This document shows, piece after piece, positions 16,068 through 32,897 of a stretch of DNA of 32,897 nucleotides. The position numbers and the translations under genes were made by a program. Source of the DNA: Cyanobacteria bacterium P01_H01_bin.15 (GTDB taxonomy: Bacteria; Cyanobacteriota; Cyanobacteriia; Cyanobacteriales; JAAUTE01); NCBI GenBank assembly GCA_038750375.1, contig JBCDHF010000003.1, positions 1 through 32,897 on the forward strand. The letters run 5' to 3'. The notes beneath the pieces are model-generated. The model was not told the DNA's origin. It did not search any database and saw only the letters and a list, made by a program, of their open reading frames with translations. The stretch's first letter is position 1. The number at the start of each line of letters is the position of its first letter.

Positions 16068-16284
16068 ATTTATCGGGTCGCTAAGTGCTAAAAGTCTCGC
16101 AGAGCAAGTGACGCCTTGATTTCAAGTTTACGGGAAACCTGTCTCTTCAAGTCCAGAGGATAACCTTGGCAACAAGCCATCTCCACTGAGGACTATTGCG
16201 AGTTTGGGTACTTTCAGTCATGCTATGTCCCATGAAATGCCCATTCCGTAATTGGGCTGTTGCCGATAAAGCTCAGGTTTTCCC

Positions 16285-18159
16285 ATGCATCCAGAAACAG
16301 TTGGTGATTCCCTTGCAACTTTGATCGCGGAGGTTAGCGGTCAATACCCCGAACAATTTGCCTTGCTAGCACCGGGCAGAGAGCCTTTAACGTTCAGTCA
16401 GTTACTATTCCATTTGGATAACGTCGCTGAACAGTTGTCTCAATGGGGGATCACGCCCCAGGATCGGGTGGCGGTCTCTTTGCCCAATGGCCCCCAGATG
16501 GCGACTGTATTTTTAGGCGTTGCACGCGTGGCTAGCTGTGCCCCCTTGAATCCCAACTACCGAGAGCCCGAATGCGAGTTTTATTTATCGGATCTCCAGC
16601 CCAAAGCGTTGATTGTTCAGCCCGGGATTGCAGATGCTGCCCGCGCAGTGGCTCTTAAACTCGGAATTGTCGTGTTAGAAATGTCGATTCCGGACAATGG
16701 TCCTGCCGGTGTTTTTGAACTTAAGAGCGACACCCCTTACTCATCGGAGCCGAGCTCGCAGCGGGGCAGCCCCGATGATGTTGCGTTAGTTCTCCATACT
16801 TCGGGCACCACTTCCCGCCCCAAAATGGTGCCCCTTACCCAGCGTAATCTCTGCCGATCTGCCCTCAATATTGCAGACACCTTAAGGCTCACCTCCCAAG
16901 ATCGCTGTCTCAATGTGATGCCTTTGTTTCACATTCACGGGCTGATGGGCTGTTTGCTTTCTTCAATCTCTGCCGGGGCTAGTATTGCCTGTACGCCGGG
17001 ATTCGACGCTGACAGCTTTCGAGACTGGTTAAAAGAGTGCCAACCGACTTGGTTTTCGGCTGTTCCGACCATGCAGCAGGCCGCTCTGACCCAAATTCAG
17101 CAAGGCGGTCTCCCGGATTGCCCACTTCGTTTTGTCCGCTCATCTTCTGCTGCGATGCCTGCCACCGTCTTAGCCGAAATCGAAAAAACCTATGGGGTTC
17201 CTTTAATTGAAGCCTATGGCATGACAGAAGCCTCCCACCAAATGACCAGTAATCCGCTTCCTCCGGCTCCCAGAAAACCCAAATCGGTCGGGGTGGCAGG
17301 GAAAACGCAAGTTGCGATCGCGGCAGCAGATCGTAATGAACTGCTGGCTCAGGGAGAAATCGGAGAGGTTGTCATTTGTGGGGGGGCGGTCACCCAGGGC
17401 TATGTGTCTAATCCGAAGGCTAATGCTACGGCCTTTTTTGAGGACTGGTTTCGAACCGGAGACCAGGGCTATCTCGATGAAGACGGCTATTTATTTTTGC
17501 AGGGACGACTCAAGGAAATCATTAACCGGGGCGGAGAGAAGATCTCGCCGCTGGAAATTGATGAAGCGTTGATGGAATTGCCAGCCGTGCATCAAGCCGT
17601 GGCGTTCGCGATGCCCCATCCCACTTTGGGCGAAGATTTAGCGGCGGCGGTTGTGCTAAAGCCAGACTCAACCACAACCCCGAGAGACTTGCGGGACTAT
17701 CTATTTGAGCGAATTGCTGACTTCAAAGTGCCCAGCCAAATTATTTTGGTCGAGCAAATTCCCAAAGGCGCCACCGGAAAATTACAACGCATTGGTCTAG
17801 CCGAAAAATTATCTTCACAACTTACCGCTGACTTTGTCGCTCCCCTCAATGAGACTGAACAAGCCATTGCCGCCGTTTTCCAAGAAATTCTCGGTTGCGA
17901 TCGCGTGGGAACCACCGAAAATTTTTTTGTGTTGGGTGGAGATTCCTTAAAAGGAACCCAAGTCACCTCCCGGTTGAGCCAACAATACGGAATCGAACTG
18001 CCCAATACCCAACTATTCCACTGTCCCACCGTGGTAGAGCTCGCCCAGGAAATTGAACGTTTGACTCGTGACGATGCTGCGATCGCAGACTTAGCGGACG
18101 AGCTAGCGGGACTCTCTCCCGAAGAACTAGAACAACTGCTGGCAGAAGCCGAGGGCTAA
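16285..18159 (+). CDS. Adenylation-thiolation didomain: oxalate-CoA ligase-like (AAE3/Pcs60-type) A domain fused to a carrier domain and an acidic docking-like tail
   Basis: DDVALVLHTSGTTSRPK, PLFHIHGL, WFSAVPT, LRFVRSSSA, EAYGMTEASHQMTSNPLP, INRGGEKISP and PKGATGKLQR match the oxalyl-CoA synthetase clade as I know it. The carrier motif FFVLGGDSL has its Ser codon at 17944. The tail is IADLADELAGLSPEELEQLL. Confidence 0.85.
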   Translation: MHPETVGDSLATLIAEVSGQYPEQFALLAPGREPLTFSQLLFHLDNVAEQLSQWGITPQDRVAVSLPNGPQMATVFLGVARVASCAPLNPNYREPECEFYLSDLQPKALIVQPGIADAARAVALKLGIVVLEMSIPDNGPAGVFELKSDTPYSSEPSSQRGSPDDVALVLHTSGTTSRPKMVPLTQRNLCRSALNIADTLRLTSQDRCLNVMPLFHIHGLMGCLLSSISAGASIACTPGFDADSFRDWLKECQPTWFSAVPTMQQAALTQIQQGGLPDCPLRFVRSSSAAMPATVLAEIEKTYGVPLIEAYGMTEASHQMTSNPLPPAPRKPKSVGVAGKTQVAIAAADRNELLAQGEIGEVVICGGAVTQGYVSNPKANATAFFEDWFRTGDQGYLDEDGYLFLQGRLKEIINRGGEKISPLEIDEALMELPAVHQAVAFAMPHPTLGEDLAAAVVLKPDSTTTPRDLRDYLFERIADFKVPSQIILVEQIPKGATGKLQRIGLAEKLSSQLTADFVAPLNETEQAIAAVFQEILGCDRVGTTENFFVLGGDSLKGTQVTSRLSQQYGIELPNTQLFHCPTVVELAQEIERLTRDDAAIADLADELAGLSPEELEQLLAEAEG

Positions 18160-18162
18160 GAC

Positions 18163-19908
18163 ATGACAGAGCCTGCAGATAGTCTTCTTCCGCAGTCACA
18201 ATCAGCTTCCTCGGACTCCCTTATCCGAAAATTGGAGCAGTTGACCCCTGCTCAGCGTCGACAACTCCGTCAAAAACTTGGGCAGCGATCGTTGAATGGC
18301 AACGACTTAATCGCCAAAGTGCTTAGTGCTCTAGGTATTACCCATGTCTATGGCATTTCGGGAGTGCCGGTTCATCAGTTACTGGGTCAATGTGCCCGAG
18401 CTGGTATTCGCGTAGTTTGTGGTCGTCACCAACAGGGAGCCACACTAATGGCTGCGAGCCATAATTACGCTGCTGGTAAGTTAGTCGCAGCCGTAATTGT
18501 GTCTTCGGGACCCGCGATTACCAACACAACCACGGGAGTCCTCGTTGCTTGGGATAATGCTTGGCCACTTTTAGTGATCGGTGGTGGTCGAGGCGATGGA
18601 CCGCCTGGCATGTTTCAAGCCCTTGATACTCAACCGATATTCACGCCAATCACAAAAGCCGTCTTTCATCTCTGCTCTGCTCAGGAGATTATTTCAACGC
18701 TGAGCAGAGCCGCTGATCTCGCCATCAGCGATCGCCCCGGACCCGTGTATATTGAGCTGGATCAATCAGTACTAACCCAAACCGCAAGCTTAACTGCCGA
18801 CCTTTCTCCACCCCGTCCGTCCTTCCCCTCATTCGAGCCAACTGCGATTGCCCAGGCTGCAGCCTTACTACAACAAGCCGAGCGCCCCTTATTAGTCTTT
18901 GGTAAAGGCGTGCGCTGGTCAGAGCCTTATGTCGAACTTGCTCAGCTAACCGGTTTAGGAATACCGTTTGTTGCCTCACCGATGGGACAGGGCTATTTGC
19001 CTGATGATGATTCAGCGAATGTTACCCCAGCGGGTTCTTTGGCTCTATCAACGGCGGACGTCGTTTTAAGTGTGGGAGCCCGTTGGAACTGGACTTTTCG
19101 CTTTGGGGCAGAGTTGGCTGAGAATGCCCAATTAATTCAAATTGATGTTCACGAGCCAGAATTGGGTTTGAATGTAAAACCCGCTGTGGGAATTGTGGGC
19201 GATGCGCAAGCGATTTTACAAGCCTTACTAATGAAATTGGGTTCCACTAGTTGGCAGTCAAAGTCTGGAACCGCAGCCTGGCGAGCGCAGCTCGCTACTG
19301 CGTCTCAAGAAAAACAGCAATATTGGCGATCGCGTATTGACCCGACTCAATTGCCCCTGAATTTGCAGACCATGTATGATGCCATTCTGCCTTTGCTGCC
19401 CCGGGACGCAATTACGGTCTTAGAGGGCAACTTCACCTTGGAAGCCGGACTCAGACTAGTGCCCTGTTACCGTCCAGCGAGTCGCTTTACGAATGGAAGT
19501 AATGGGTGTGTGGGAGTAGGGCTACCCTTTGCCATTGGGGCGAAAATCGCCAATCCTGATCGGCTTGTAATTGCTGTTAGCGGAGATTTATCCTTTGGAA
19601 TGACGGCGTTGGAACTGGAAACAGCAGTCAGATACCAGGTTCCCATCGTAATACTGGTTGCCAATAATCAAGGCTTTTGTGGATCTCTCTATCAACATCA
19701 GAACTATGGCATTGATTATCCCGAACGAGTCACGATGTTTGTCCCCAACGCCCAGTATGAAGTGCTCGCCACGGCATTTGGCGGATTCGGTGCAACTGTG
19801 CAAACGGCCTCAGAATTAACCGCCGCCATAACAGACGCAATTGCGGCAAATGTCCCGGCTTGCATTAACGTGCAAATTGACCCCACTGCACCCAACCCTC
19901 GCCATTAA
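18163..19908 (+). CDS. ThDP-dependent enzyme, oxalyl-CoA decarboxylase / 2-hydroxyacyl-CoA lyase-like, with an N-terminal docking-like extension
   Basis: GITHVYGISGVPV, SSGPAITN, WPLLVIGG, RPGPVYIEL, PLLVFGKG, SPMGQG, ADVVLSVGARWNW and the ThDP motif GDLSFG...ELETAVRY...NNQG. It reads RHQQ where the family has RHEQ/RNEQ. It starts 3 nt after the A-T gene stop. Confidence 0.85.
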   Translation: MTEPADSLLPQSQSASSDSLIRKLEQLTPAQRRQLRQKLGQRSLNGNDLIAKVLSALGITHVYGISGVPVHQLLGQCARAGIRVVCGRHQQGATLMAASHNYAAGKLVAAVIVSSGPAITNTTTGVLVAWDNAWPLLVIGGGRGDGPPGMFQALDTQPIFTPITKAVFHLCSAQEIISTLSRAADLAISDRPGPVYIELDQSVLTQTASLTADLSPPRPSFPSFEPTAIAQAAALLQQAERPLLVFGKGVRWSEPYVELAQLTGLGIPFVASPMGQGYLPDDDSANVTPAGSLALSTADVVLSVGARWNWTFRFGAELAENAQLIQIDVHEPELGLNVKPAVGIVGDAQAILQALLMKLGSTSWQSKSGTAAWRAQLATASQEKQQYWRSRIDPTQLPLNLQTMYDAILPLLPRDAITVLEGNFTLEAGLRLVPCYRPASRFTNGSNGCVGVGLPFAIGAKIANPDRLVIAVSGDLSFGMTALELETAVRYQVPIVILVANNQGFCGSLYQHQNYGIDYPERVTMFVPNAQYEVLATAFGGFGATVQTASELTAAITDAIAANVPACINVQIDPTAPNPRH

Positions 19909-19945: not shown

Positions 19946-21475
19946 ATGTCTGATTCGCCACTCTCTCGTAAACTCGCCAATCTCTCGCCAGTACAGTTAG
20001 CAAAATTGCGATCGCGGCTGAAGGCTAAACCGTCCGAGATTCAGCCTCGGTCGCAAGTCACCGACTTTCCCGATGACTTAAAACGTTCACTTAATGGTTT
20101 CGATGCTTGGAAGGCCACCCCTAATCAATCCCTGCTGTGGTTTTTAGATCAAAGTCTGGGATCTAATGCAGTCTATAACGTAGTGCGTTCAGTTCGTCTA
20201 TACGGTCCTTTAAATATTCCGGCGTTTCAACAGGCATTACATACGATAGTTCAACGCCACGAAGCTTTAAGGACGAATTTTCAGAGTATTGACCGCGTTC
20301 CTTATCAAATTATCGACAACAACAGCGATCGTTTCAAGGTGCCAGTCGTTGATTTGCGTTCAGTCGATCTAGCTCAAAAGGAATATGCATTACAAAAACA
20401 ATTTCGAGAACTTGGTCAGAAGCCATTTAATCTAGCTCAGGATTTGCTCATTCGCGTCACCATTATTCAACTCGATAATGACCGGTTCGGACTGTCGTTC
20501 TCCTTGCATCATATCATTTGCGATGGCTGGTCCCTGGGTGTTTTATCTAAAGAGCTCTCTACCTTATATCAGGCCTACTGCAACGGCCAAACTTCACCTT
20601 TGTCTCTACCTAAACTGCAATATGCAGATTATGGTCTCTGGCTGCAAACTGGGTTAAAGAAAGAATCACAGGAGCAAGCACGTCGCTATTGGCAGGAAAA
20701 ATTAGCAGGCGAATTGCCCATTCTAGAACTGCCTTGTGATCGCCCTAGAAAAAACGAGCAAACTTACAGTGGTCGCTTAACGACATTTGTTTTTGAGTCC
20801 GCATTATTCAACAGTCTTAAACAACTCGCTAATGAAACTGGAACGTCTTTATTTATGGTTTTATTGGCAAGTCTAAAAGTCTTGTTACATTGCTACACCC
20901 AACAGACTGATATTATCATTGGCTCGCCTATTGCCAACCGCAGCCGTCCTGAAATTGAGGGGACCATTGGCTTTTTTGTTGATTATTTGCCATTACGCAC
21001 CGATTTATCTAACAATCCATCATTTATTGAGCTGTTGACCCGGATACGCCAAACAACTCTAGACGCCTATACTCACGCCTATCCCTTTGCCAAGGTTCTC
21101 AGATTGCTAGAAGTAAAGCACGATCGCATCCGACCCCCTGTTTTCTCTGTGATGATGACGATGCAAAATGTTCCTTCCCCTGATTTAGAGTTAGACAGCG
21201 TAAAGCTATCCGGTTATCGGTCGACAGATAAACCGCCCATGTCTCGAACGTCAATTGTTGGCTATGAATTTCGCACCGATATTGAAGCAGCCCGGTTCGA
21301 CTGGACTATTTTGCTTAAAGAGAATCAAGGAGAGCTATCGGCCGTGTTTGAAGCAAATCGAGATCTGTTTGAACCAGAAACAATTCAACGAATCATCGAT
21401 TATTGGCAAACTATACTAGCGGCGATCGTCGCGAACCCTGACTACGCAATCGCAGAATTTTGCTCACCAAGTTAA
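19946..21475 (+). CDS. Stand-alone NRPS condensation domain protein
   Basis: ATG at 19946 (MSDSPLSRKLANLSPVQLAKLRSRL). Contains RHEALRTNF, intact HHIICDGWS, LQYADY, IGSPIANR and IGFFV, with no A or T domain. Confidence 0.9.
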   Translation: MSDSPLSRKLANLSPVQLAKLRSRLKAKPSEIQPRSQVTDFPDDLKRSLNGFDAWKATPNQSLLWFLDQSLGSNAVYNVVRSVRLYGPLNIPAFQQALHTIVQRHEALRTNFQSIDRVPYQIIDNNSDRFKVPVVDLRSVDLAQKEYALQKQFRELGQKPFNLAQDLLIRVTIIQLDNDRFGLSFSLHHIICDGWSLGVLSKELSTLYQAYCNGQTSPLSLPKLQYADYGLWLQTGLKKESQEQARRYWQEKLAGELPILELPCDRPRKNEQTYSGRLTTFVFESALFNSLKQLANETGTSLFMVLLASLKVLLHCYTQQTDIIIGSPIANRSRPEIEGTIGFFVDYLPLRTDLSNNPSFIELLTRIRQTTLDAYTHAYPFAKVLRLLEVKHDRIRPPVFSVMMTMQNVPSPDLELDSVKLSGYRSTDKPPMSRTSIVGYEFRTDIEAARFDWTILLKENQGELSAVFEANRDLFEPETIQRIIDYWQTILAAIVANPDYAIAEFCSPS

Positions 21476-21525: not shown

Positions 21526-24500
21526 ATGACATCTATAAACGATCGCCTCTCTAAACTCAGCCCAGCTCAGCGCCAACTGCTGACCCAAAAATTGCGGCAG
21601 AAACAGAGTCAGATTGCGCCACGCCCTGCTGAACAAAGCGCCTCTCTATCGTTAGCCCAGCAACGTCTGTGGCTACTCAATCGATTAGAGCCTGACAGTG
21701 CTGCCTACAATTTCCCTTGCTTTTTGTCATTCCAGGGCGACCTCAAAATCGACATTTTGGAACGCGCCCTGAACGAGATTATCCGTCGTCATGAGGTTTT
21801 GCGATCATGTTTTCCGGAAGTTGAGGGTCAACCCACTGTTGAAATAGCCACTGAACTCATACTCACGCTCCAACGCATGGATCTAAGCCAGCTAGCCGAG
21901 GCTGAACAACAACAAAGATTTCAGCAGCTGGCCCATCAAGAAGCCCAAGCTCCATTTGATATTACACAAGGACCCTTAATCCGTGCCAAGCTACTTTATC
22001 GTGGCCCACAGAACCATATCTTACTGCTGACGTTACATCATATTGTCTTTGATGCATGGTCTAGAGGGATTTTTAATCGCGAATTACAAGCTCTATATAC
22101 AGCCTTTGCCGAGAACAACCCATCGCCGCTTGCGGATTTACCTATTCAATACGCAGACTTTGCCTACTGGCAGCAGCAATGGTTGACGAACCAGAGAGTT
22201 CAGACCCAGTTAGGATACTGGCGTCAGAAACTAGCAAATATCCCCGCAGTATTGGAACTGCCTAACGATCGAGCACAGACAGCGACAAAATCGGATAGAG
22301 AGAAACATTTATTCTGGACGCTGGAGGCAGAGGAGACAAAGCGGCTTCAATCTTTTAGTAAAGAGCAAGGATGTACTGTCTTCATGACGTTGCTTGCCGC
22401 CTTCAAGATTTTATTGGCACGGTTATCGGGTCAGACCGATATTTTTGTGGGGATACCGGTAGCTGGGAGAACGCGCTTGGAAGTAGAACCATTACTGGGC
22501 TTCTTTGTTAATACTCTTGTATTGCGTAGTGACCTAGCATCAACACAAACGTTTACTCAACTGCTTGCTCAAGTTCGCGAAACTACTTTGACTGCCCAGG
22601 AAAATCAAGATGTTCCCTTTGAAAAGGTGATTGAGGAATTAAATCCAGAGCGAATTCTAAATCGCAAGCCCCTCTGTCAAATTTGGTTCAACATGGTAAG
22701 CCTCGCCGAAGAAAGGCCTTCGATCAAGGATCTTGAAGTAAAATCACTCCCGTTTAGACCTCCCAATTCTAAATTTGACTTAGGCGTTTATATAAGACAG
22801 CCCCAAACAAACTATCAAATTGATTTCGCCTACAGTGCTAACCTATTTAGCAAAGAGCGCATCGAAATATTGCTCGGGCAATATAAACAATTGCTGATGC
22901 AAGTCATCGAGCAGCCAGAAACTGCGATCGCAAACTACTCACTAGCCACACCCGGGCTGATAGCACAGTCGATTCTGCCAGATCCTAAACTCGCGCTAGT
23001 TGAGGAGCCTTTTGAGCCCGTAACTAAGCTGCTTACAACCTGGGCAGATCGTCATCCCGATTCCGTTGCGATTAGTCAAGGAGAGCAGAAGTGGTCTTAT
23101 CGGGAGCTGCGAGAAAAATCCTATCAATGTGCGCAAACGCTAATTGTCAATGGAATGAAGCCGGGAGATACGGTGGCAGTTTCCGGCGATCGTAGTTTTG
23201 GTCTGATTGTTGCAATGTGGGGCATTTTATTCAGTGGTGGCGTCCTACTTACTCTCGATCCGACCTTACCTCAGAAACGCAAAGAGAGAATGCTCGCGCT
23301 AAGTGAAGCGAAGTATATTTTGTACGTTGGCAATTTGCTTCCTGAGGATAACTGGCTAGAAAAGCAATCAGAATTACTTCATCTCAGCGCCCTAACGGGG
23401 GACATTAAAGATGACAAATTACTGACTGATACTGATGCTTCGCTTTCATTACCCGAACTGCAGCGTTCAGCGTATATCTTTTTTACCTCTGGGACCACGG
23501 GCACTCCCAAAGGAATTTTAGGAACGCATCAAGGTCTAGCCCATTTCTTATACTGGCAACGCCATACTTTTTCAGTCCAGCCGGGCGATCGGGTTGCCCA
23601 ATTAACAGGGCTCTCGTTTGATGTGGTTCTGCGGGAAATATTTCTGCCTTTGAGCAGCGGGGCAAGGCTGTGTCTTCCCCCTGCTTCAGCGGATTTGTCT
23701 CCAGTATCGATTTTGCCGTGGTTAGATCAGCAGCAAATTTCGATCCTTCACATTGTCCCTTCTCTAGCCCAAGTCTGGATCAACGATCTTCCAGAGCAAA
23801 ATTCTCTATCTAACTTGCGCTGTTTATTCTTTGCCGGAGAACCATTATTCGATAAATTAGTACTTCAATGGCGTCATTGCTTATCAAACAGTTGTCGAAT
23901 CATCAATCTTTACGGTCCAACTGAAACGACGCTTGCTAAATGTTATTTTGAAATCCCGAAAACGCCGCCTACAGGCGTACAGCCAGTTGGGACCTCCCTA
24001 CCCGGGAGCCAGGCGTTAGTTTTAGCAGATCATCAGCGTCTATGCGGCGTAGGGGAACCGGGCGAAATTGTGATCCGAACACCATACCGAACAGCTGGGT
24101 ATCTCAAAAATCCAGAAGAAAATACACGTCGATTTGTCCCTAATTCAGCTCGTGAGGATGAGAACGATCTGTTGTACTTCACTGGCGATAGCGGACGATA
24201 TCGCCCTGACGGGCAACTAGAGATCTTGGGTCGCTTAGATAATCAAATCAAAATCAGAGGCGTTCGGGTTGAATTAGGAGAAATTAGCAGTCTTTTAGAA
24301 GCAATAGAGGAGATCAAAAATCAGTTTGTAATGGTTCGGGAAGACACGCCAGATGACAAAAAAATTGTGGCATACGTGGTTCCTGCACCCGGCAAAACAA
24401 TTGAGACGTACAAACTTCGAGAACGGCTCAGATTACATCTTCCTCAATATATGATGCCCAGTGCATTTGTAATGCTACCCGTGCTTCCCCTCACTCCCAA

Positions 24501-27500
24501 TGGGAAAGTGGATCATCAAGCTCTTCCTGCACCAGAACCAGTCATCGATATCTCTGAATTTATTACGCCAGAGACTCCTACAGAAAAAACTCTCAGCAGG
24601 ATTTGGGAAGAGGTTCTGAATACAGAGCAGGTTAGCGCAACAGCTGATTTCTTTGAGCTAGGAGGCCATTCTTTACTTGCCGTGAAACTGATCTCACGAA
24701 TTCGGCAGCAGCTAGATTGTGAGATTCCTATTCGTGAGCTATTCGCTTGTTTAACTATAAGAAATCTTGCCAAGTACATTCACTCCAGATCAACTTCTTC
24801 TCCCGTTAAAAAACGCCTCTCTCAATTAAGTCCAAAACAGCATCAATTACTCGCTAAAAAACTAGAGCAGAGAAAAAATCAAATCTCCACTCAATCCAGA
24901 GATCCGGAAGCCCCCCTTCCTTTATCTCTGGCTCAACAGCGGCTATGGTTCATTGATGAATTAGAAGGTCAAAGTCCCCTTTACAATCTTTCTTTGATCC
25001 TGGAATTTGAAGGCGCGGTCAATCCAACTTTTCTGGAACAAAGTTTGCGCATCATTATCCAACGGCATAAAATTCTGCGCGCTCAAATCACCGCAGATGA
25101 CGGAATCCCTTGCCTAGCTTTTCGCGACGAGAGCACTTGGAAGTTTAACACCCTCGATTTTAGCCACATTCCGTCAGAAGACAGAGAAGCTCACGTTCAT
25201 CAAGCCCTGAAAGCAGAGCTGATGAGCCCCTTTGCTCTTAATCAGGATTGGCTAATTCGAGCCGCCCTACTCCAAAAGGATACAGAAAAATCAACGTTGG
25301 TAATTGTGACCCATCACATCGTTTCCGATGGCTGGTCTACTGGAATTTTACGCACCGAGTTATCAGCGCTTTATGAAGCATATGTTCAGAATCAAGAACC
25401 GTCTCTACCCCCGCTACCAATTCAATATGCCGACTATAGCATTTGGCAACGGCAGCAATTTGAAACAGATTACTTAAAACCCCATACTGATTATTGGCGG
25501 TTGCAACTAACAGGAACGCCTCCTCTCATAGAACTGCCCCTGGACCGCCCGCGCCCTGCAATTCTTTCCTATCGTGGACAGCATTTGCGTTCAGTCCTAA
25601 GTGCCGAACAAGCGTCAAAACTCACGAAGCTTGGTCAACAGCGGGGAATGACTCTATTTATGGTGCTGTTAGCCGCATTTCAGACTCTGTTATTTCGCTA
25701 TTCCGGACAGCCGGACATTGTTGTTGGAACCCCGATCGCTAACCGTAATCGGACAGAGATTGAATCGTTAATCGGTTTCTTTGCCAATACTCTTGTGCTC
25801 AGAAGCCAATTCGAGTCAGCCCAATCCTTTGAAGACCTTTTGTTCAAAGTTAAGGAAACTACCCTCAACGCATACGCTTACCAAGATTTTCCGTTTGAGC
25901 AAGTCGTAGAAATCCTTCAACCACAGAGGAATTTGAGCTACTCGCCTGTTTTCCAGGTGATGTTCGCGCTGCAAAATTTGCCGCCCGTCACTGAGACGCT
26001 AGGCGATATTACCTGGCAACGAATATCAGTCTCAACTGAAACCGCTAAGTTCGACTTAGGACTTTTCGTGCGAGAAGCTGCATCAGGGCTTAACTTAACT
26101 TGGGAATATAATACTGACCTGTTTGATATGGCAACTATCGAACGTATGGCTCAGCATTTTTCAGTGTTGCTCGACGGCGTTATTGCTAACCCAGCTAGAG
26201 AGATCGCTTGTTTACCCATCTTGACTGACCCAGAACGTTCTCACTTGCTGGTTGAATTGAACAATACAGCAACAGATTATCCACGGGATAAGTGCCTCCA
26301 TGAGCTGTTTGAAGAGCAAGCCAGAAAGACACCAAATACGATCGCGATCGAGGATCACAACCAATCCATAACCTATCAGGAGCTGGATCAGCAGGCTGAA
26401 CAATTGGCTGCTTATCTGGGCTCAAAAGGAATTGCGGTCGAGTCAACGGTTGGTCTGTTTCTGGATCGATCCCTGTCAATGATAATTGCCGTTCTTGCGA
26501 TCCTAAAAGCGGGGGCGGCGTATGTGCCATTAGATTTAAACTATCCGGCCGCTAGAATTGAATATATGTTGTCCAATTCCGAGGCGAGTCAGGTTCTGAC
26601 AACCCGCTCACTGTCTGGTCGGCTACCCGCCTCAATCACAACGATCTGTATTGATCAACCGCTTACTGCTCCCATCGCTCACACCCAAAGCGCACAGGCA
26701 AGTCCAGATAACTTAGCTTATCTTATCTATACGTCTGGTTCAACGGGGAAACCCAAAGGCGTTGCAATGACTCATAAGACTTTAGTCAATCTCATTCAAT
26801 GGCAATGTGATCAGTCAGAATCCCAACAACGAACTCTCCAATTTTCGCCCATTAGTTTTGATGTGTCCTGTCAAGAAATATTCTCTACTTGGGCATCCGG
26901 CGGAACTCTCGTCTTAATTACAGAAGAAACCCGTCAAGATTTTGGCGCTTTCTTTGATTATTTGACCCATCAGAAAATTAATCGACTCTTTTTGCCCTTT
27001 GTCGCACTTCAAGGACTTGCTGAAATTGGTCAAAATCGCGATTTTCCTGGCTCTTTGCAGGAAGTGATCACGGCGGGTGAAGCGCTTAAGATTAGTCCTG
27101 CGATCGCAAAATTTTTCGAGAAAGGGTCTAGCTGTCGTTTGCAAAATCAGTATGGCCCTTCAGAAACGCATGTAGCCATCGCTTTTTCGTTAACTGGAGC
27201 ACCAGACACTTGGGCAACATTTCCGCCCATTGGCCAGCCTATCGCCAATGCCCTTGTTTACTTGCTGGATGGCATGCATCAAATTGTTCCGATTGGCATT
27301 CCTGGTGAAATATATATTGGTGGAACTGCGATCGCACGAGGCTATCACAACCTACCGGAGCAAACTGAAGCTAAGTTCATTGATAACCCATTTGGGCCAG
27401 GGCGTCTGTACAAAACGGGAGATTTAGGACGGTACCGAACCGATGGTGCAATCGACTACCTTGGTCGGTCCGATCGCCAAGTCAAAATACGAGGATTCCG

Positions 27501-29031
27501 CATTGAACTTGGTGAAGTTGAAGCGCAGTTAAATGCCATGCCCGAGATCAAGACAGCCATTGCGGTGGTTCGAGAGGATCAAACAGGGGATAAGCGCTTA
27601 ATCGCTTATGGCATACCCAAACAAAGGGAAACAATCGATATAAGGATGTTAAAAGCCTATTTGTCAGATAAGCTGCCAGACTACATGATTCCAGTTGCCA
27701 TTGTTTGTCTAGACAAATTTCCAGTAACACCCAGCGGCAAAATAGATCGCAAAGCTCTTCCCACACAAGAATTTCAAACAGATGATATTGCTGTCGCCCC
27801 ACGGGACCCGTTAGAACGACAGCTCGTCGACATTTGGCAACGCATTTTGGGGCTCCAATCAATCGGCATCCAAGATGACTTTTTCGAGCTGGGAGGACAC
27901 TCACTATTAGCGGTAAAACTCTTCTCAGAGATTGAGAAAACCTGTAATGAAAAGTTACCCCTCGCAACCCTATTTCAGGCTCGTAATATCGCAGAACTGG
28001 CGACTTACATCCGCGAGCGCCGCTTTGAAGAACATTCTTGCTTGATTCAGATGCAGACTATGGGCGAGCGCCCGCCTTTATTTTTCCTACCGCCTGCGGG
28101 GGGACATATGCTCGTATATGAGCGTTTAGCAAATAATCTCGGGCCCGATCAACCTATGTATGGTCTGGAATTCCAGGCTTCTGCCAATGACGATGCTCAG
28201 GGCAGTTCAATCAAAAATACGGTCAGCGAATTTATTCGCGCCATGCGCCAGGTGCAACCCAATGGACCCTATCATTTAATCGGACTTTCTTTTGGTGGAC
28301 TCCTCGCTTGGGCTGTTGCTGAAGAATTACAACGCCAGGGAGAACCTTTAGCAACCATTATTCTCCTGGATTGTGCAGCTCCTGGCACGACGAAACGCTT
28401 AACAGGTTTTCCTCGCTTTATTGCGGTGGCTTCTTGGGTGATATATGAACGAGTGCGTCACTTCTGGCGTATTTGTAGAGATGATGTCAAAAAGCGACTT
28501 CATTCAAAAAAACTCAATTTAGAATCTAGAAAACCCACCTCATCCTCTGTCCAAACAAAAGATCAAGTTCAACAACACAAGTTACAACAGCAAGTCCAAG
28601 ACATCGTAGAAAGTCTAAAAAGTGCTCATGGAGGAAATTGGCAAAAGTGGTTGGACTATTGGGGAGCGAGACTAGTGACCCTGACCGAATCGAAGTATTT
28701 GGTCAAACCGATTTATGGAGGACAGCATTATCTAGATGATATCCGTGACTTCCTTGATGATAGGACTTTAGAGGTTTTACAAACGAAGTATAACTTATTA
28801 AAAAGGTATCAACCGGGACCCTTATCCTGTCCAGTCCTGGTATTTCGAGCAACAGAGCGGATCCCGAGCTTAAAGACCAGTTTTACAATGGGTTGGGAAC
28901 CATTTGTTCAGAAAGAACTGAAAGTCATTCCAATTCATGGAGGTCACCATACTATTGTGACCTCGACCAAGTTAGCAACGCAGTTAGCTCGCTATCTTGA
29001 TATTATTCATCAAAATCAATCAAGCAAATAG
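21526..29031 (+). CDS. Two-module NRPS, C-A-T-C-A-T-TE
   Basis: C1 HHIVFDAWS; A1 FTSGTTGTPKG and YGPTE; T1 GGHSL (about 24661); C2 HHIVSDGWS; A2 YTSGSTGKPKG with a proline-like pocket; T2 GGHSL (about 27892); TE GLSFGG (28282) and a C-terminal His (GGHH). Confidence 0.96.
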   Translation: MTSINDRLSKLSPAQRQLLTQKLRQKQSQIAPRPAEQSASLSLAQQRLWLLNRLEPDSAAYNFPCFLSFQGDLKIDILERALNEIIRRHEVLRSCFPEVEGQPTVEIATELILTLQRMDLSQLAEAEQQQRFQQLAHQEAQAPFDITQGPLIRAKLLYRGPQNHILLLTLHHIVFDAWSRGIFNRELQALYTAFAENNPSPLADLPIQYADFAYWQQQWLTNQRVQTQLGYWRQKLANIPAVLELPNDRAQTATKSDREKHLFWTLEAEETKRLQSFSKEQGCTVFMTLLAAFKILLARLSGQTDIFVGIPVAGRTRLEVEPLLGFFVNTLVLRSDLASTQTFTQLLAQVRETTLTAQENQDVPFEKVIEELNPERILNRKPLCQIWFNMVSLAEERPSIKDLEVKSLPFRPPNSKFDLGVYIRQPQTNYQIDFAYSANLFSKERIEILLGQYKQLLMQVIEQPETAIANYSLATPGLIAQSILPDPKLALVEEPFEPVTKLLTTWADRHPDSVAISQGEQKWSYRELREKSYQCAQTLIVNGMKPGDTVAVSGDRSFGLIVAMWGILFSGGVLLTLDPTLPQKRKERMLALSEAKYILYVGNLLPEDNWLEKQSELLHLSALTGDIKDDKLLTDTDASLSLPELQRSAYIFFTSGTTGTPKGILGTHQGLAHFLYWQRHTFSVQPGDRVAQLTGLSFDVVLREIFLPLSSGARLCLPPASADLSPVSILPWLDQQQISILHIVPSLAQVWINDLPEQNSLSNLRCLFFAGEPLFDKLVLQWRHCLSNSCRIINLYGPTETTLAKCYFEIPKTPPTGVQPVGTSLPGSQALVLADHQRLCGVGEPGEIVIRTPYRTAGYLKNPEENTRRFVPNSAREDENDLLYFTGDSGRYRPDGQLEILGRLDNQIKIRGVRVELGEISSLLEAIEEIKNQFVMVREDTPDDKKIVAYVVPAPGKTIETYKLRERLRLHLPQYMMPSAFVMLPVLPLTPNGKVDHQALPAPEPVIDISEFITPETPTEKTLSRIWEEVLNTEQVSATADFFELGGHSLLAVKLISRIRQQLDCEIPIRELFACLTIRNLAKYIHSRSTSSPVKKRLSQLSPKQHQLLAKKLEQRKNQISTQSRDPEAPLPLSLAQQRLWFIDELEGQSPLYNLSLILEFEGAVNPTFLEQSLRIIIQRHKILRAQITADDGIPCLAFRDESTWKFNTLDFSHIPSEDREAHVHQALKAELMSPFALNQDWLIRAALLQKDTEKSTLVIVTHHIVSDGWSTGILRTELSALYEAYVQNQEPSLPPLPIQYADYSIWQRQQFETDYLKPHTDYWRLQLTGTPPLIELPLDRPRPAILSYRGQHLRSVLSAEQASKLTKLGQQRGMTLFMVLLAAFQTLLFRYSGQPDIVVGTPIANRNRTEIESLIGFFANTLVLRSQFESAQSFEDLLFKVKETTLNAYAYQDFPFEQVVEILQPQRNLSYSPVFQVMFALQNLPPVTETLGDITWQRISVSTETAKFDLGLFVREAASGLNLTWEYNTDLFDMATIERMAQHFSVLLDGVIANPAREIACLPILTDPERSHLLVELNNTATDYPRDKCLHELFEEQARKTPNTIAIEDHNQSITYQELDQQAEQLAAYLGSKGIAVESTVGLFLDRSLSMIIAVLAILKAGAAYVPLDLNYPAARIEYMLSNSEASQVLTTRSLSGRLPASITTICIDQPLTAPIAHTQSAQASPDNLAYLIYTSGSTGKPKGVAMTHKTLVNLIQWQCDQSESQQRTLQFSPISFDVSCQEIFSTWASGGTLVLITEETRQDFGAFFDYLTHQKINRLFLPFVALQGLAEIGQNRDFPGSLQEVITAGEALKISPAIAKFFEKGSSCRLQNQYGPSETHVAIAFSLTGAPDTWATFPPIGQPIANALVYLLDGMHQIVPIGIPGEIYIGGTAIARGYHNLPEQTEAKFIDNPFGPGRLYKTGDLGRYRTDGAIDYLGRSDRQVKIRGFRIELGEVEAQLNAMPEIKTAIAVVREDQTGDKRLIAYGIPKQRETIDIRMLKAYLSDKLPDYMIPVAIVCLDKFPVTPSGKIDRKALPTQEFQTDDIAVAPRDPLERQLVDIWQRILGLQSIGIQDDFFELGGHSLLAVKLFSEIEKTCNEKLPLATLFQARNIAELATYIRERRFEEHSCLIQMQTMGERPPLFFLPPAGGHMLVYERLANNLGPDQPMYGLEFQASANDDAQGSSIKNTVSEFIRAMRQVQPNGPYHLIGLSFGGLLAWAVAEELQRQGEPLATIILLDCAAPGTTKRLTGFPRFIAVASWVIYERVRHFWRICRDDVKKRLHSKKLNLESRKPTSSSVQTKDQVQQHKLQQQVQDIVESLKSAHGGNWQKWLDYWGARLVTLTESKYLVKPIYGGQHYLDDIRDFLDDRTLEVLQTKYNLLKRYQPGPLSCPVLVFRATERIPSLKTSFTMGWEPFVQKELKVIPIHGGHHTIVTSTKLATQLARYLDIIHQNQSSK
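21715..21749 (+). repeat. 35-bp exact direct repeat shared by the 5' C-domain regions of the two NRPS genes (second copy 30372-30406)
   Basis: CCTTGCTTTTTGTCATTCCAGGGCGACCTCAAAAT occurs at both positions, inside a longer region of high similarity. Confidence 0.9.
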
Positions 29032-29334
29032 ATATATTTGATTCCTTTCTGCGATGACTAGGGGGTGGTCAATATTCAAGTTGAGACATTGTGCGATCGA
29101 GGGAGGTTCGCTAGTGGATAACCTCTTTAATTGTGACACTTTGTTTATTTAGGTGATTTGCTTGATGAATAAGTTTAGGGAATTAAATCCGCCTATCAAA
29201 TTCACCGTGGCTGCCACTAGGCATTAAAAGCGCTTTTTTGATCAGAATCAACGCCGTAATTTTACTTGTTCTGCACTGACTTTAGGACAGGATGTCCGAC
29301 AATAGTGACGAAAACTAAATCTCAATCAGAGGCT

Positions 29335-30180
29335 ATGCTTAAGCACTCCGGCGATCGGCTTCGCTCACTTCTGGGTTCAGCGGAAACCATTCCGTTTATG
29401 GGCGTTTATGATGCCTTTTCTGCGGCGATCGCCGGGAGATACTATCAGAACCTATTTGTTAGCGGTGATGGCTTCGGGGTTAGCTACTATAGCTTACCTG
29501 ATATTGGGTTTATTGCCTGGGTAGATATGGTGAACTTCGTAAAGCAGCTCTGAACAATTCTCCCAGAGCACCTCTCTCTTATTGGTTGATATTGATGATG
29601 AATATGTTGATGTGCAGACAGCTTGCCATGTTGTTCGCCGACTAGAACAACTTTGCGCTGCGGGTGGAATTCTCGAAGATCACCCCCCCCCTGGCGATGC
29701 TGCCATGCCGATGGTAAGCAGTTACTCGATAGTGATAGCTACTTGGAAAAACTTGCTGAGGTCCTAGCAGCTAGGGAGCGTCTCTTCGTCCTGGCTCGTA
29801 CTAATGCCACAGATCCAACGGAAATTATTGAGCGGAGCAAGCGTTATGCGAATGCTGGAGCAGATGCAGTGCTGGCTGATGGCATTACTGATTTAGCTAT
29901 TCTTAAAACCTTGTAGAGCGAAGTCTCAGTTCCCATCGTTTTTAATCAAATCGCGGGCGGGAAATCGCCTACCTGCAACCTGACAGAGCTTAGTAATATC
30001 GGGGTCTCCCTCGTGAACTACAGCACCCCATGTTTGTTCGCGGTCCAAGATGCTATTGCGACAGAAATGGAACGACTTTCTTGGGCAGATGGTAAGTTGG
30101 GGGAGCGAGGCTGGTCCGATTGTAACCCAGTCCTTCAAGAGTCTCTAGAAAAGATCACGCATTCACGATCACGCGATTAA
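29335..30180 (+). pseudogene. Disrupted isocitrate lyase/PEP mutase superfamily gene, lyase branch (methylisocitrate lyase / oxaloacetate acetylhydrolase-like)
   Basis: Pieces in three frames join to GVYDAFSA...LPDIG...VDIDDEY...LEDHxxxWRCCHADGK...ARTNA...GADAV...FNQIAGGKSP. Lesions are TGA at 29551-29553, a frameshift in the CT run near 29572-29581, a frameshift in the C9 run at 29683-29691 and TAG at 29914-29916. The natural stop TAA is at 30178-30180. Confidence 0.85.
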
Positions 30181-30182: not shown

Positions 30183-32897
30183 ATGGCTTCTCTAAACGAT
30201 CGCCTTTCTCAACTCAGCCCAGAACAACGTCAACTGCTGGCAAAAAAACTGCGACAGAAGCAGAGTCACATTTCGCCAAGACCCGCTGGACAAAAGACCA
30301 TCCTTTCCTTTGCCCAACAAAGAATGTGGTTGTTATATCGACTAGATCCTGATAGTGAAGCCTATAATTTTCCTTGCTTTTTGTCATTCCAGGGCGACCT
30401 CAAAATTAAAGTTTTGGAGCGCGTCCTGAACGAAATTGTTCGTCGTCACGAGATTTTGCGATCGCGCTTCCCTGAAGTCAATGGGGAACCCACTGTAAAA
30501 ATTATTGATGATTTCAAGTTGACCTTAGAGCCAATTAGTCTTGAAAATCTAGACCGAGCCGAGCAGCAGTCTCGTGTTCAACAGTTAGCTAGTCAAGAAG
30601 CAAAAAATCCCTTTGACATCACGCAAGATGCTCTAATTCGAGGAAAAATTTTAACTCTTGATGATCATCAATACGTTTTGCTACTAACCCTTCATCACAT
30701 TATTTTCGATGGCTGGTCCGAGGGGGTATTTAAACAAGAGTTAGAGAGCCTATATGACGCATTTTCTCAAGGCAAACCATCTCCTTTACCGGAATTATCG
30801 ATACAGTATGCAGACTTCGCCCACTGGGAGCGGCAATGGTTAACGACCGAACGTGCTCAAACTCAACTTGACTATTGGAGTCAGAAATTAGCAGGCATGT
30901 CGCCCTTACTTGAGCTGCCCACAGATCGTCCGCGTCCGGCTATTCAAACTGACAAAGGCGATCGCGTTTTTTGGACTCTAGGTAAGTCAACTACAGAGAA
31001 TTTGCGAGAGCTCAGTCAAAAACAAGACTGCACATTATTTATGACATTGATGGCAGCCTTCCAGATATTGTTATTTCGATATTCTGGACAAGAGGATATT
31101 GCCGTTGGTACGCCTATTGCCAGTCGAATAAGACCCGAGATTGAGGGAATAATTGGTTATTTTGCTAATACCTTGATATTGCGAGAGACATTATCTGATG
31201 AGATGGCGTTTAATGACCTAGTACAACAAATAAAAGAAACAGCACTAGCCGCCTATAATCATCAGGATATTCCATTTGATCGACTAGTACAAAAACTTCA
31301 ACCTACGCGAAATACTAGTTTTTCACCCTTGTTTCAAGTGGTTTTCGCGCTGCGGCCTAATAATTTTACCAGCGACACACGTTGGCAACAGCTTTCCTTA
31401 AACCCAAATACAGCAAAGTTTGATCTTGAAGTTAATCTCCGGGAAGATGATGAGGAGCTAACGGGTTACTGGGAATATAATACAGACTTGTTCAATCGCG
31501 ACACCATTGAACGAATGTGCAAACATTTTACAGTTTTACTGGCTGGAATTTTAAAAAATCCAGCCATGTCGATTTCCCTGTTGCCATTGCTGACGAATGC
31601 AGAACGACATCAATTATTGATCGAGTGGAACAATACTGCTACGGACTATCCTAAGGATAAATGTATTCATGAACTTTTTGGGGAGCAAGTTTCAAAAACG
31701 CCTGATGTGATCGCGGTAAGCTACGACAAACAATCGCTGTCCTACTGTGAACTTAATCAGGAAGCCAATCAACTAGCTCAATATTTACAATCGATACATG
31801 CACAAGCAAACTCACGAATTGGGATTTGCCTGGAGCGCTCAAACAGTGCCATCGTAGCGATTTTAGGTGTACTTAAAGTTGGTTGTCTTTATGTCCCACT
31901 AGATCCTCACTATCCTACTGAGCGCTTGCAGTTCATGGTTGATGATGCTCAAATATCGATCATTCTATCTAATTCCCAAACTCAGTATGCGATTGATAAG
32001 CTTTCTATCAACACCAGTATTACTTCGATTGTGAAGATTGATCGTGTTGTGTATTCCGAGTCACAAGAGAGTCTTAGCCTTGCTGTAAAATCTCACCAAG
32101 GAGCATATATTAACTATACGTCTGGCTCTACCGGTGTCCCCAAAGGCGTCCTTGTCCCTCATCGTGGGGTTATCCGTCTCGTTCGCAATACAAATTATAT
32201 TGATATTCGGCGAGGCGATCGCGTCGGACAAGCGGCAACGCTAGCTTTTGATATGGCAACCTTAGAAATTTGGGGTGCTTTATTAAACGGAGGATCCATT
32301 ATTGGTATTCCGAAAGAGACCCTGCTCGACCCCTGGGCATTAGCCCACACGATTCAAAGAGAACATATTAATGTATTGGTTGTCCCAACTGCCGTATTGC
32401 ACAAAATAGCAGAAACTGATTCAACAATCTTTTCTACTTTAAAGTGCTTAGTATTCGGTGGTGAAGCGGCGTCTCCCCACTGGATCAAACGAATTCTGAA
32501 ACATGGTGCACCCCAAAGCTTAGTGAATGGTTACGGACCTACGGAGAATACTGCCATCAGCTCTGCTTATGTTGTTGCTGAGATAGCTGAAAATGCAACG
32601 ACTGTCTTGATCGGCAAACCAATTAGCAATAGTCGTTGCTATGTGCTTGATAAAAATCGTGAGTTAGTCCCTATTGGGGTTCCTGGCGAACTATATGTAG
32701 CTGGAGATGGGCTCGCAAATGGTTATTTATTCCGTCCACAAGCCTCCGCAGAAAAGTTTATCCTCCATGAGTGGGAAAAAGGAAATGTTGAGCGGCTCTA
32801 TCGTACGGGTGATTTAGTCCGATATCACGCAGACGGCAATTTAGAGTTTGTTGGACGGCAAGATTCTCAAGTTAAAATTAGAGGTTTTCGTATTGAA
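30183..32897 (+). CDS. Second NRPS (C-A...), 3'-truncated by the window edge
   Basis: Not in the ORF track because no stop falls in the window. ATG at 30183 gives MASLNDRLSQLSPEQRQLLAKKLRQK, followed by HHIIFDGWS, YTSGSTGVPKG, NGYGPTE and YRTGD, and stays in frame to QVKIRGFRIE at 32897. Confidence 0.95.
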   Translation, partial: MASLNDRLSQLSPEQRQLLAKKLRQKQSHISPRPAGQKTILSFAQQRMWLLYRLDPDSEAYNFPCFLSFQGDLKIKVLERVLNEIVRRHEILRSRFPEVNGEPTVKIIDDFKLTLEPISLENLDRAEQQSRVQQLASQEAKNPFDITQDALIRGKILTLDDHQYVLLLTLHHIIFDGWSEGVFKQELESLYDAFSQGKPSPLPELSIQYADFAHWERQWLTTERAQTQLDYWSQKLAGMSPLLELPTDRPRPAIQTDKGDRVFWTLGKSTTENLRELSQKQDCTLFMTLMAAFQILLFRYSGQEDIAVGTPIASRIRPEIEGIIGYFANTLILRETLSDEMAFNDLVQQIKETALAAYNHQDIPFDRLVQKLQPTRNTSFSPLFQVVFALRPNNFTSDTRWQQLSLNPNTAKFDLEVNLREDDEELTGYWEYNTDLFNRDTIERMCKHFTVLLAGILKNPAMSISLLPLLTNAERHQLLIEWNNTATDYPKDKCIHELFGEQVSKTPDVIAVSYDKQSLSYCELNQEANQLAQYLQSIHAQANSRIGICLERSNSAIVAILGVLKVGCLYVPLDPHYPTERLQFMVDDAQISIILSNSQTQYAIDKLSINTSITSIVKIDRVVYSESQESLSLAVKSHQGAYINYTSGSTGVPKGVLVPHRGVIRLVRNTNYIDIRRGDRVGQAATLAFDMATLEIWGALLNGGSIIGIPKETLLDPWALAHTIQREHINVLVVPTAVLHKIAETDSTIFSTLKCLVFGGEAASPHWIKRILKHGAPQSLVNGYGPTENTAISSAYVVAEIAENATTVLIGKPISNSRCYVLDKNRELVPIGVPGELYVAGDGLANGYLFRPQASAEKFILHEWEKGNVERLYRTGDLVRYHADGNLEFVGRQDSQVKIRGFRIE

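Follow-up and report, generated by a model that had tools for sequence, protein, structure and literature searches.

Two groups of enzymes, the oxalate-CoA ligases and the OXC/HACL family dependent on thiamine diphosphate (ThDP), are the closest described relatives of a pair of adjacent genes analyzed in this study. The pair is located in Cyanobacteria bacterium P01_H01_bin.15 (GenBank assembly GCA_038750375.1, contig JBCDHF010000003.1) and encodes an adenylation-carrier (A-T) didomain protein and a ThDP enzyme, which are followed on the same strand by genes of nonribosomal peptide synthetases (NRPSs). The window, that is, the whole stretch of 32,897 nucleotides analyzed here, corresponds to the entire contig C3; the assembly comprises 615 contigs and has a completeness of 93.6%. 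We lean, a little beyond even chance, to the view that oxalate is self-loaded by the A-T protein as the carrier-bound thioester oxalyl-S-T and is decarboxylated on the carrier by the ThDP enzyme, which would yield a formyl or 2-hydroxyacyl starter for the downstream condensation (C) domains.

The oxalate-CoA ligases AtAAE3 (5IE0-5IE3), LsOCS (6QJZ), Pcs60/FAT2 (8AFF), and OXS of M. extorquens share the ANL fold with the A domain from the window, as well as the His of the gate, the Ser and His that contact oxalate, and the catalytic Lys. In the structural account of AAE3, the oxalate pocket is formed by V215-H216, C288-S289, A313-M314, H319, and K500; S289, H319, and K500 contact oxalate, S289 and H319 are described as conserved only in oxalyl-CoA synthetases, and H214 is the gate of the pantetheine tunnel (PMC8905533). 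These ligases use CoA, whereas the window protein has an in-cis carrier domain, a putative docking tail, and an NRPS-operon setting, with I/S/G in place of V/C/A in the pocket.

The HACL/S enzymes (DhcHACL/S 8VZJ, ApbHACL/S 8VZA, TbHACL/S, and RuHACL 6XN8) and OXC (2Q27, 2C31, 7AYG) have the three-domain ThDP fold, the ADP-site arginines, and the ThDP/Mg motif in common with the window enzyme, and a Phe-Gln pair is common to HACL and the window enzyme. As described for OXC of M. extorquens, the active-site Tyr and the lid Ser hold the protonating water, and the Y497A substitution causes an approximately 400-fold shift in favor of carboligation; human HACL, which has the Phe-Gln pair, is reported to decarboxylate oxalyl-CoA at a rate under 1 per min (PMC7154664). 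According to the structural work on HACL/S, bound acyl-CoA is covered by the folded C-terminal region and contacted by the lid residues R545, K546, Q548, and W552 and by R260 and R400 (ApbHACL/S numbering), and these enzymes were characterized as formyl-CoA/aldehyde ligating ones (8vzj is DhcHACL/S; PMC11271303). Unlike both HACL/S and OXC, the window enzyme has no covering lid, has lost a CoA-binding Arg, has Gln in place of the cofactor-activating Glu, and starts with an NRPS-type N-terminal helix; its presumed substrate is a carrier-protein thioester.

One-carbon acyl groups are known from assembly lines. The F-domain N-formylation of linear gramicidin provides a formyl N-cap, the formyl group being taken from 10-formyl-tetrahydrofolate. 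The formyl starter of lactacystin (LctF/LctA) is likewise a single-carbon acyl group, attached to a carrier protein, and, as described, also derives from 10-formyl-tetrahydrofolate, whereas a formyl group made by the window proteins would derive from oxalate by decarboxylation (PMC11730586). The engineered OXS-OXC-thioesterase cascade (Burgener et al. 2020, PMC7154664) leads from ligase-activated oxalate through ThDP decarboxylation to a C1 nucleophile, which together with an aldehyde gives a 2-hydroxyacyl thioester. Natural forms of the ligase with a carrier domain and a thioesterase (A-T-TE) resemble this arrangement. The cascade, however, is man-made and operates on free CoA, whereas the parts found in the window are natural, carrier-tethered, and NRPS-feeding, and carboligation by them is predicted. 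In the literature searched, with most subscription journals outside its coverage, neither an oxalate-loading NRPS module nor a carrier-dependent OXC/HACL enzyme is described.

The A-T protein and its oxalate-type pocket

The gene of the A-T protein and the motifs considered below are the following.

16285..18159 (+), gene of the A-T protein, 624 aa: adenylation domain of the oxalate-CoA-ligase type, followed by a carrier domain and an acidic tail at the C-terminus (open reading frame [ORF], Pfam, PDB sequence matches)
16924..16941 (+), LFHIHG, residues 214-219: H216 corresponds to H214 of AAE3 (pantetheine gate), I217-H218 to V215-H216 of the pocket (translation, alignment to 5ie0)
17137..17151 (+), RSSSA, residues 285-289: S287-S288 corresponds to C288-S289 of AAE3 (oxalate contact) (translation, alignment to 5ie0)
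17218..17238 (+), GMTEASH, residues 312-318: G312-M313 corresponds to A313-M314 of AAE3, H318 to H319 (oxalate contact) (translation, alignment to 5ie0)
17860..18051 (+), carrier (T) domain, residues 526-589: phosphopantetheine Ser554 in LGGDSL (550-555), codon 17944-17946 (Pfam PP-binding E 2.5e-16, motif)
18052..18156 (+), acidic C-terminal tail (..LADELAGLSPEELEQLLAEAEG), putative docking element (translation, family alignment)

The reading frame 16285-18159 (+) is open under table 11 and intact, and its product contains the Pfam domains AMP-binding (residues 18-373, E 7e-67), AMP-binding_C (424-499), and PP-binding (526-589, E 2.5e-16). The original prediction, made from the sequence alone, described an adenylation part of CoA-ligase rather than amino-acid type, fused to a GGDSL carrier domain and an acidic helical tail, and our results agree with it as to the type of the adenylation part, the carrier domain, and the acidity of the tail. 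The motifs LFHIHG, RSSSA, TEASH (residues 314-318), and GGDSL (residues 551-555) are all present in the translation; the carrier domain with Ser554 is found at the head of an NRPS operon; and the last 35 residues (..RDDAAIADLADELAGLSPEELEQLLAEAEG) are acidic. The Asp of the FDxS motif is absent: LFHIHG occupies the place of SFDVV and SFDVS in the 2501-aa NRPS and of AFDMA in the third NRPS, both of which have amino-acid-type A domains. Judged by its sequence, the A-T protein is thus an acid-loading module, comparable to the loaders of aryl or fatty acids and not of amino-acid type.

The affinity to named ligases was assessed by ranking the phmmer scores of the A-T protein against all PDB sequences, in place of a tree. 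Oxalate-CoA ligases are the top matches: AtAAE3 (5ie0) with 386 bits (E 2.8e-114), yeast Pcs60 (8aff) with 371 bits (E 1e-109), and Lathyrus OCS (6qjz) with 371 bits (E 1.2e-109). About half of the AAE3 score is reached by MatB (203-207 bits; 4fuq, E 5.7e-59) and FadD13 (3r44, 203 bits, E 8e-59). They are followed by 4-coumarate ligases (about 170 bits, E about 1e-48), MenE (about 160 bits), and DhbE/EntE (134-138 bits, E about 1e-38), while the score of LgrA, about 265 bits, comes from alignments that extend over the T domain too.

Five of the eight pocket residues of AAE3 are identical in the alignment to 5ie0, and the other three substitutions are conservative (V to I217, C to S287, and A to G312) and roughly volume-neutral. 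Both oxalate-specific residues are retained (S288 and H318 for Ser289 and His319 of AAE3), and so is the catalytic Lys (K499 for K500). In an alignment of 27 family members, S288 and H318 are invariant, as are H216 and H218, I217 is nearly so, and all pocket residues are invariant or nearly invariant. The His/Ser/His pocket named in the original prediction was roughly right; the published pocket also includes further residues. On these grounds the A domain is probably descended from oxalate-CoA ligases, and the A-T protein probably activates and loads oxalate. The fused T domain with its GGDSL motif suggests that the pantetheine in cis, rather than CoA, is the acceptor.

Relatives of the A-T protein and stand-alone ligases

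The carrier domain is present in all 120 best database relatives of the A-T protein (52-66% identity), and the named ones among them come from cyanobacteria, Burkholderiales, and Anaerolineae. An extra thioesterase (the A-T-TE form) is found in 13 of these 120 relatives and hexapeptide repeats in two. A scan of species-representative genomes with the A-T family alignment retained 80 loci, namely 15 A-T fusions and 65 stand-alone ligases that have 53-57% identity and lack the T domain. The nine-residue pocket signature HIHSSGMHK is exact in 65/65 stand-alone bacterial ligases, in 33 of the 46 A-T loci with a ThDP gene (the remainder are mostly truncated), and in 10 of the 14 A-T loci without it, where the others have C or A at position 287.

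In 32 of the 65 stand-alone loci, the gene immediately downstream encodes a PanE/ApbA-family reductase, and the panE2 product is described as an oxalyl-CoA reductase (PMC12686821). Because of the pocket signature and this PanE-type neighbor, we suggest that the whole bacterial ligase clade is oxalate-activating. No OXC-like gene was detected within 10 kb of any of the 65 stand-alone ligases (tblastn, E<=1e-20), and the assembly containing the window yielded no AAE3-like A domain besides that of the A-T protein. A ThDP gene accompanies only three of the 17 A-T loci in species-representative genomes, which makes it an optional, not a constant, companion of the loader.

Several A-T loci have unusual surroundings. 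For instance, in a Halomicronema metagenome-assembled genome (MAG), a phosphosulfolactate synthase (ComA) gene lies between the C-A-T and the AAE3-like A-T genes (L001:4495-5289), with the ThDP gene upstream, and another contig of the same MAG (L185) carries a lyase gene together with the A and ThDP genes. In a Coleofasciculaceae MAG (L017:11932-16953), the module after the AAE3-like A-T contains a formyltransferase domain between C and A, and a TauD-family dioxygenase is encoded after it. In a Ktedonobacteraceae MAG (L082:4179-10353), the AAE3-like A-T gene is followed by lantibiotic-dehydratase-like and gamma-glutamyltranspeptidase genes instead of NRPS modules.

The adjacent ThDP enzyme

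The ThDP gene starts 3 nt past the stop codon of the A-T gene.

18163..19908 (+), ThDP enzyme, 581 aa: lid-less, Gln90 clade of the OXC/HACL family (Pfam TPP_N/M/C, PDB matches, structure model, tree)
18202..18288 (+), N-terminal extension of the ThDP enzyme, residues 14-42 (..LIRKLEQLTPAQRRQLRQKLGQ..): putative NRPS-type docking helix (hidden Markov model [HMM], structure model)

Its best relatives with solved structure are DhcHACL/S (8vzj, E 2.4e-84), E. coli OXC (2q27, 1.5e-74), and O. formigenes OXC (2c31, 1e-61). The NCBIfam scores are below the cut-offs for OXC (TIGR03254 and NF006721; 302 vs 739.4 and 326 vs 557 bits) as well as for HACL (258 vs 600), and the curated OXC cut-off was not reached in the whole-genome search either. 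The AlphaFold model (pLDDT 84.5) matches HACL/S and OXC equally well, with Z of 43-44 (43.8 to 8vzk and 8vzb).

Residues were compared with those of E. coli OXC (locus L097). In the window enzyme, Phe151-Gln152 replaces the Tyr-Glu pair of OXC, the Tyr of the NNGGIY motif is absent and Cys506 is found there, and the C-terminal lid of 20 residues is reduced to seven; the lid Ser is missing. The position of the ThDP-activating Glu is occupied by Gln90, and the enzyme has Gly291 and Leu430 at the positions of Apb R260 and R400, respectively. Finally, its 43-residue N-terminal extension has no counterpart in E. coli OXC. The Phe-Gln pair and Gln90 recur in 120/120 best database homologs, and the tail has 10 residues or fewer in 115 of these.

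A clade of ThDP enzymes linked to A-T genes

A genome scan with the ThDP alignment retained 79 loci; a query with the single protein yielded three relatives, and alignment queries were required. An AAE3-like A domain (>=43% identity) lies within 6 kb in 45 of the 79 loci, in 44 of these with a fused T domain. The A domain and the ThDP gene are co-oriented in all 45 cases, the A domain is upstream in 41, and a C domain is encoded downstream in 30. The A core and the ThDP start are a median of 347 nt apart, equal to the length of a T domain plus the tail.

In the IQ-TREE phylogeny of 67 enzymes (L154 was left out as misaligned), the A-T-linked enzymes form one clade (SH-aLRT 99). Of its 39 members, 37 are linked to an A-T gene, the others being L125, where the contig is too short upstream, and L155. 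The sister group consists of 17 Chloroflexota enzymes without A-T, and E. coli OXC falls outside; the solved enzymes DhcHACL/S (8vzj) and CfhHACL/S (8vzk) come from the same phylum as the sister clade. The two clades differ in the following features.

Tail after the last strand: A-T-linked clade, 11 residues or fewer in 36/37; sister clade, 17-22 residues in 17/17; E. coli OXC, 20
Arg at the Apb R400 position: A-T-linked clade, 0/39; sister clade, 17/17; E. coli OXC, Arg
Cofactor-activating position: A-T-linked clade, Gln in 39/39; sister clade, Glu in 17/17; Glu in 10/10 distant enzymes and in E. coli OXC
Arg at the Apb R260 position: A-T-linked clade, 22/39 (Gly291 in the window enzyme); sister clade, 17/17

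Within the clade, Phe of the Phe-Gln pair (F151) and the loop glycine G67 are invariant (39/39), the second residue of the pair being Gln in 29 enzymes, Met in seven, and Thr in three. The ADP-site arginines and the GD..NN diphosphate/Mg2+ motif are conserved as well. The loss of the lid and of a CoA-binding Arg suggests that the ThDP enzyme is adapted to a carrier-bound substrate.

The carriers of the gene pair belong to the Pseudomonadota, Nitrospirota, Acidobacteriota, Chloroflexota, Binatota, Cyanobacteriota, Gemmatimonadota, and Thermodesulfobacteriota. The ThDP enzyme was not found in 400 other genomes of the window's own phylum (E<=1e-60). Among cultured strains, the A-T and ThDP proteins are encoded in Methyloversatilis sp. 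MC4-4 (L128) and, on one 5.07-Mb contig, in Synechococcus sp. PCC 7336, and the A-T protein occurs with the lyase described below in Nostoc linckia FACHB-104 (L192) and Coleofasciculus sp. LEGE 07092 (L219). Recurrent additional genes in 47 A-T/ThDP cassettes encode a stand-alone C protein (seven loci, where it follows the cassette as in the window), MbtH (seven), phosphopantetheinyl transferase (five), and a lyase of the phosphoenolpyruvate (PEP)-mutase/isocitrate-lyase family (four).

Three more distant OXC/HACL relatives in the database (P0246-P0248, 30-32% identity) have a fused aldehyde dehydrogenase domain, which would fit an aldehyde-releasing lyase.

Putative docking motif and natural fusions

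The condensation partners of the A-T protein are encoded in the same operon and on the same strand, by a stand-alone C gene (19946-21475) and a C-A-T-C-A-T-TE gene (21526-29031).

19946..21475 (+), stand-alone condensation-domain protein, 509 aa from ATG 19946: HHIICDG at residue 188 (Pfam Condensation E 1e-101; N-terminal motif as in the ThDP enzyme)
21526..29031 (+), NRPS, 2501 aa, C-A-T-C-A-T-TE (Pfam: two Condensation, two AMP-binding, two PP-binding, one Thioesterase)
30183..32897 (+), third NRPS gene (C-A..), ends at the contig edge (ORF, Pfam, motifs)

The third NRPS gene is incomplete because the window is the entire contig. In the structure model, the N-terminal extension of the ThDP enzyme contains two helices (residues 14-25 and 29-40, pLDDT 58-77), and its motif (..LIRKLEQLTPAQRRQLRQKL..) has similar counterparts at the start of the stand-alone C protein (..LANLSPVQLAKLRSRLKAK..), of the 2501-aa NRPS (..LSKLSPAQRQLLTQKLRQK.., residues 1-26), and of the third NRPS (..LSQLSPEQRQLLAKKLRQK..). 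An HMM built from 58 ThDP N-termini only had 20 matches at E<=1e-3, all of them N-terminal: ten ThDP enzymes, eight long NRPS proteins, and two stand-alone C proteins. No matches were obtained in four lyases, 60 A-T ORFs, and 977 control ORFs from the stand-alone-ligase loci. In the window, the model matches both NRPS N-termini, the stand-alone C protein, and the T1-C2 linker of the 2501-aa NRPS (..RLSQLSPKQHQLLAKKLEQRK.., residues 1097-1116, 24814-24873 (+), E 6.7e-4). Since the motif is present in this linker, it appears to be an element normally located between a T and a C domain, and the ThDP enzyme would likely face the A-T protein in the manner of a C domain.

On the side of the A-T protein, the tail consensus LxELExLSxEExxxLL is conserved in the 27-sequence alignment, and residues 602-615 give a weak mirror match to the N-terminal docking HMM (E 0.046). 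The acidic tail is a putative docking element.

Two database proteins, P0244 and P0245, are covalent A-T-ThDP fusions. P0244 (1153 aa) has the pocket HVHSSGMHK, the GGDSL motif, and Gln at the Q90 and L430 positions, and its T and ThDP parts are only about 14 residues apart.

The PEP-mutase/isocitrate-lyase-family neighbor

The lyase gene occurs within the A-T/ThDP cassettes of L109, L110, L113, and L114, and in L014 two lyase genes flank an A-T-hexapeptide protein. The best solved relatives of the cassette lyase are 4iqd (8e-37), the petal death protein (1e-33), methylisocitrate lyases, and oxaloacetate acetylhydrolase (2e-21). A scan with this lyase subfamily retained 80 loci, of which 29 have an AAE3-like A domain within 6 kb, and about 30 actinomycete loci are without A. 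The lyase is a possible source of oxalate, as its family and neighborhood indicate.

29308..30180 (+), broken gene of the PEP-mutase/isocitrate-lyase family (tblastn to cassette lyases)

The window copy, situated between two NRPS genes, has 41-46% identity to the lyases of the five loci named above (tblastn, E 1.5e-57 to 3e-77). Read through, it contains six TGA and one TAG codons; the frame is interrupted by stops near 29554 and 29917 and changes at about 29556-29690, and RCCH is found at the RCGH motif; the flanking 7.5-kb NRPS ORF is intact. An intact copy is present elsewhere in the assembly (C132:312-1127, E 1.4e-122), at the start of a contig that also encodes an NRPS A domain (C132:4310-6022).

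Proposed pathway

According to the original prediction, oxalate or a similar small diacid would itself be the chain starter. This part is unsupported as stated, for it overlooked the adjacent gene of OXC/HACL type: as the ThDP gene is tied to the A-T gene by synteny, docking motif, and natural fusions, the oxalyl group is probably converted before condensation. Decarboxylation of oxalyl-S-T is predicted from the chemistry of the OXC/HACL family, given an oxalate-type loader, a dedicated ThDP partner, and downstream C domains.

In the proposed pathway, the free-standing loading didomain would activate oxalate as oxalyl-AMP and move the oxalyl group to its own phosphopantetheine arm (Ser554) and not to CoA. 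The ThDP enzyme would dock with its basic N-terminal helix on the acidic A-T tail, and ThDP would attack the carbonyl of the oxalyl thioester with release of CO2, leaving on the cofactor a hydroxy(thio)methyl carbanion, the equivalent of a formyl anion. This carbanion could either attack an aldehyde or ketone to form a 2-hydroxyacyl-S-T starter, or be protonated to formyl-S-T. The stand-alone C protein and the C-A-T modules would then make a short N-capped peptide, to be released by the TE domain. The gene structure, the family assignments, the residue patterns, the synteny across phyla, and the fusions are observed; the substrate, the docking, and every chemical step of this pathway are what we infer from the genes and their relatives.

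The 2-hydroxyacyl starter is the fate that we tentatively favor, as a possibility still well short of an even chance, because the residues that protonate the carbanion in OXC are all lost and the clade is sister to the aldehyde-ligating HACL/S; the absence of the Glu, as in glyoxylate carboligase, also leans toward carboligation. A formyl-S-T starter seems unlikely. In its most general form, which we regard as doubtful, the proposal would mean that oxalate serves bacteria of eight or more phyla as a masked formyl anion in an assembly line, combining an oxalate-specific loader with a lid-less and Glu-less ThDP enzyme that joins the C1 carbanion to an aldehyde to form 2-hydroxyacyl starters.

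If the conversion on the carrier is true, it would represent a new logic of NRPS starter units, in which thiamine chemistry shortens or lengthens a C2 diacid after its loading onto the carrier. The OXC/HACL enzymes, a family valued in synthetic one-carbon metabolism, would have a natural carrier-protein-dependent branch with an unusual cofactor site, Gln being found where nearly all ThDP enzymes have Glu. The 2-hydroxyacyl version would further constitute an umpolung starter chemistry so far not known in nonribosomal peptide synthesis and a natural counterpart of the OXS-OXC cascade. A function would also be assigned to a gene pair present in many phyla and to thousands of metagenome proteins annotated only as 'AMP-binding protein' or 'thiamine pyrophosphate-binding protein'; the cultured strains among the carriers are those in which the products could be sought.

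Alternative explanations

Several observations weigh against decarboxylation of oxalyl-S-T as proposed above. The Phe-Gln pair is common to the window enzyme and to human HACL, described as a poor oxalyl-CoA decarboxylase (PMC7154664). Of the eight pocket residues of AAE3, three are replaced (V to I, C to S, and A to G), and the HIHSSGMHK signature is not confirmed for any characterized bacterial oxalyl-CoA synthetase. Most A-T loci in species-representative genomes (14/17) have no ThDP gene and run straight into a C domain or a TE, the lyase gene in the window is broken, and no recurrent aldehyde-supplying gene was found in the 47 cassettes. The tree is a quick IQ-TREE version, and the ORF starts in the loci were called mechanically, making N-terminal lengths approximate. 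Finally, the cofactor-activating Glu is replaced by Gln throughout the clade (39/39 loci and 120/120 homologs). In other ThDP enzymes, loss of this Glu usually cripples catalysis, and the ThDP protein could be slow or inactive; glyoxylate carboligase, however, is active without it. In the extreme case the ThDP-like protein would be catalytically dead and act as a scaffold or gatekeeper of the loading module, as is suggested by the confinement of Gln90 to the A-T-linked enzymes and their homologs: all 27 other enzymes compared from the loci (17 sister and 10 distant ones) and E. coli OXC have Glu. We consider this highly improbable, as the GD..NN motif and the ADP-site arginines are conserved, no clade member deviates at F151 or at the loop glycine G67, and glyoxylate carboligase does without the Glu.

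The oxalyl group could instead be passed unchanged to a condensation domain, giving an N-oxalyl peptide, and the ThDP enzyme would serve in precursor supply or in later tailoring. Elsewhere, in loci lacking the ThDP gene, the oxalyl group is evidently usable in this manner, to judge from their gene order: among the 14 loci mentioned, the A-T gene directly precedes C-A-T modules in L002, L013, L015, L017, L037, L048, and L063 and a TE in L021, L024, and L090, the ThDP gene is also missing from 24 of the 29 lyase-linked A-T loci, and the pocket signature is shared by loci with and without the ThDP gene. For the window we find it improbable, since here the ThDP gene begins only 3 nt after the A-T gene and its product carries an NRPS docking motif, the ThDP clade is found almost exclusively beside A-T genes and also fused to T domains, and the contacts to free CoA are lost. 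Rather improbable, too, is the loading of another small acid, such as glyoxylate, glycolate, formate, malonate, oxamate, or pyruvate, with the ThDP enzyme acting on that thioester. In its favor, three pocket residues differ from the plant and yeast enzymes, the A-T protein has no NCBIfam equivalog (the best family is FadD7, 376 bits vs a cut-off of 650), and in the Halomicronema locus L001 the phosphosulfolactate synthase gene separates the NRPS and A-T genes. Yet both residues said to define oxalate specificity are invariant, the substitutions are conservative and nearly neutral in volume, MatB scores about half as high as AAE3, and stand-alone ligases with the identical signature adjoin PanE-family reductases in about half of their loci (32/65).

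Other features of the locus

Directly upstream of the A-T gene and on the same strand (11247-16067, +) are genes for an HlyD-type membrane fusion protein and an AcrB-type RND pump, which may export the NRPS product. The G+C content is 0.516-0.518 across the A-T and ThDP genes and 0.43-0.46 across the NRPS genes from about 20 kb on (window positions 16001-32000), so the cassette and the NRPS genes may have different histories. In the 2501-aa NRPS, HHIVFDA (residue 171) takes the place of HHxxxDG in the first C domain, whereas the Gly is present in the stand-alone C protein and in the other C domains.

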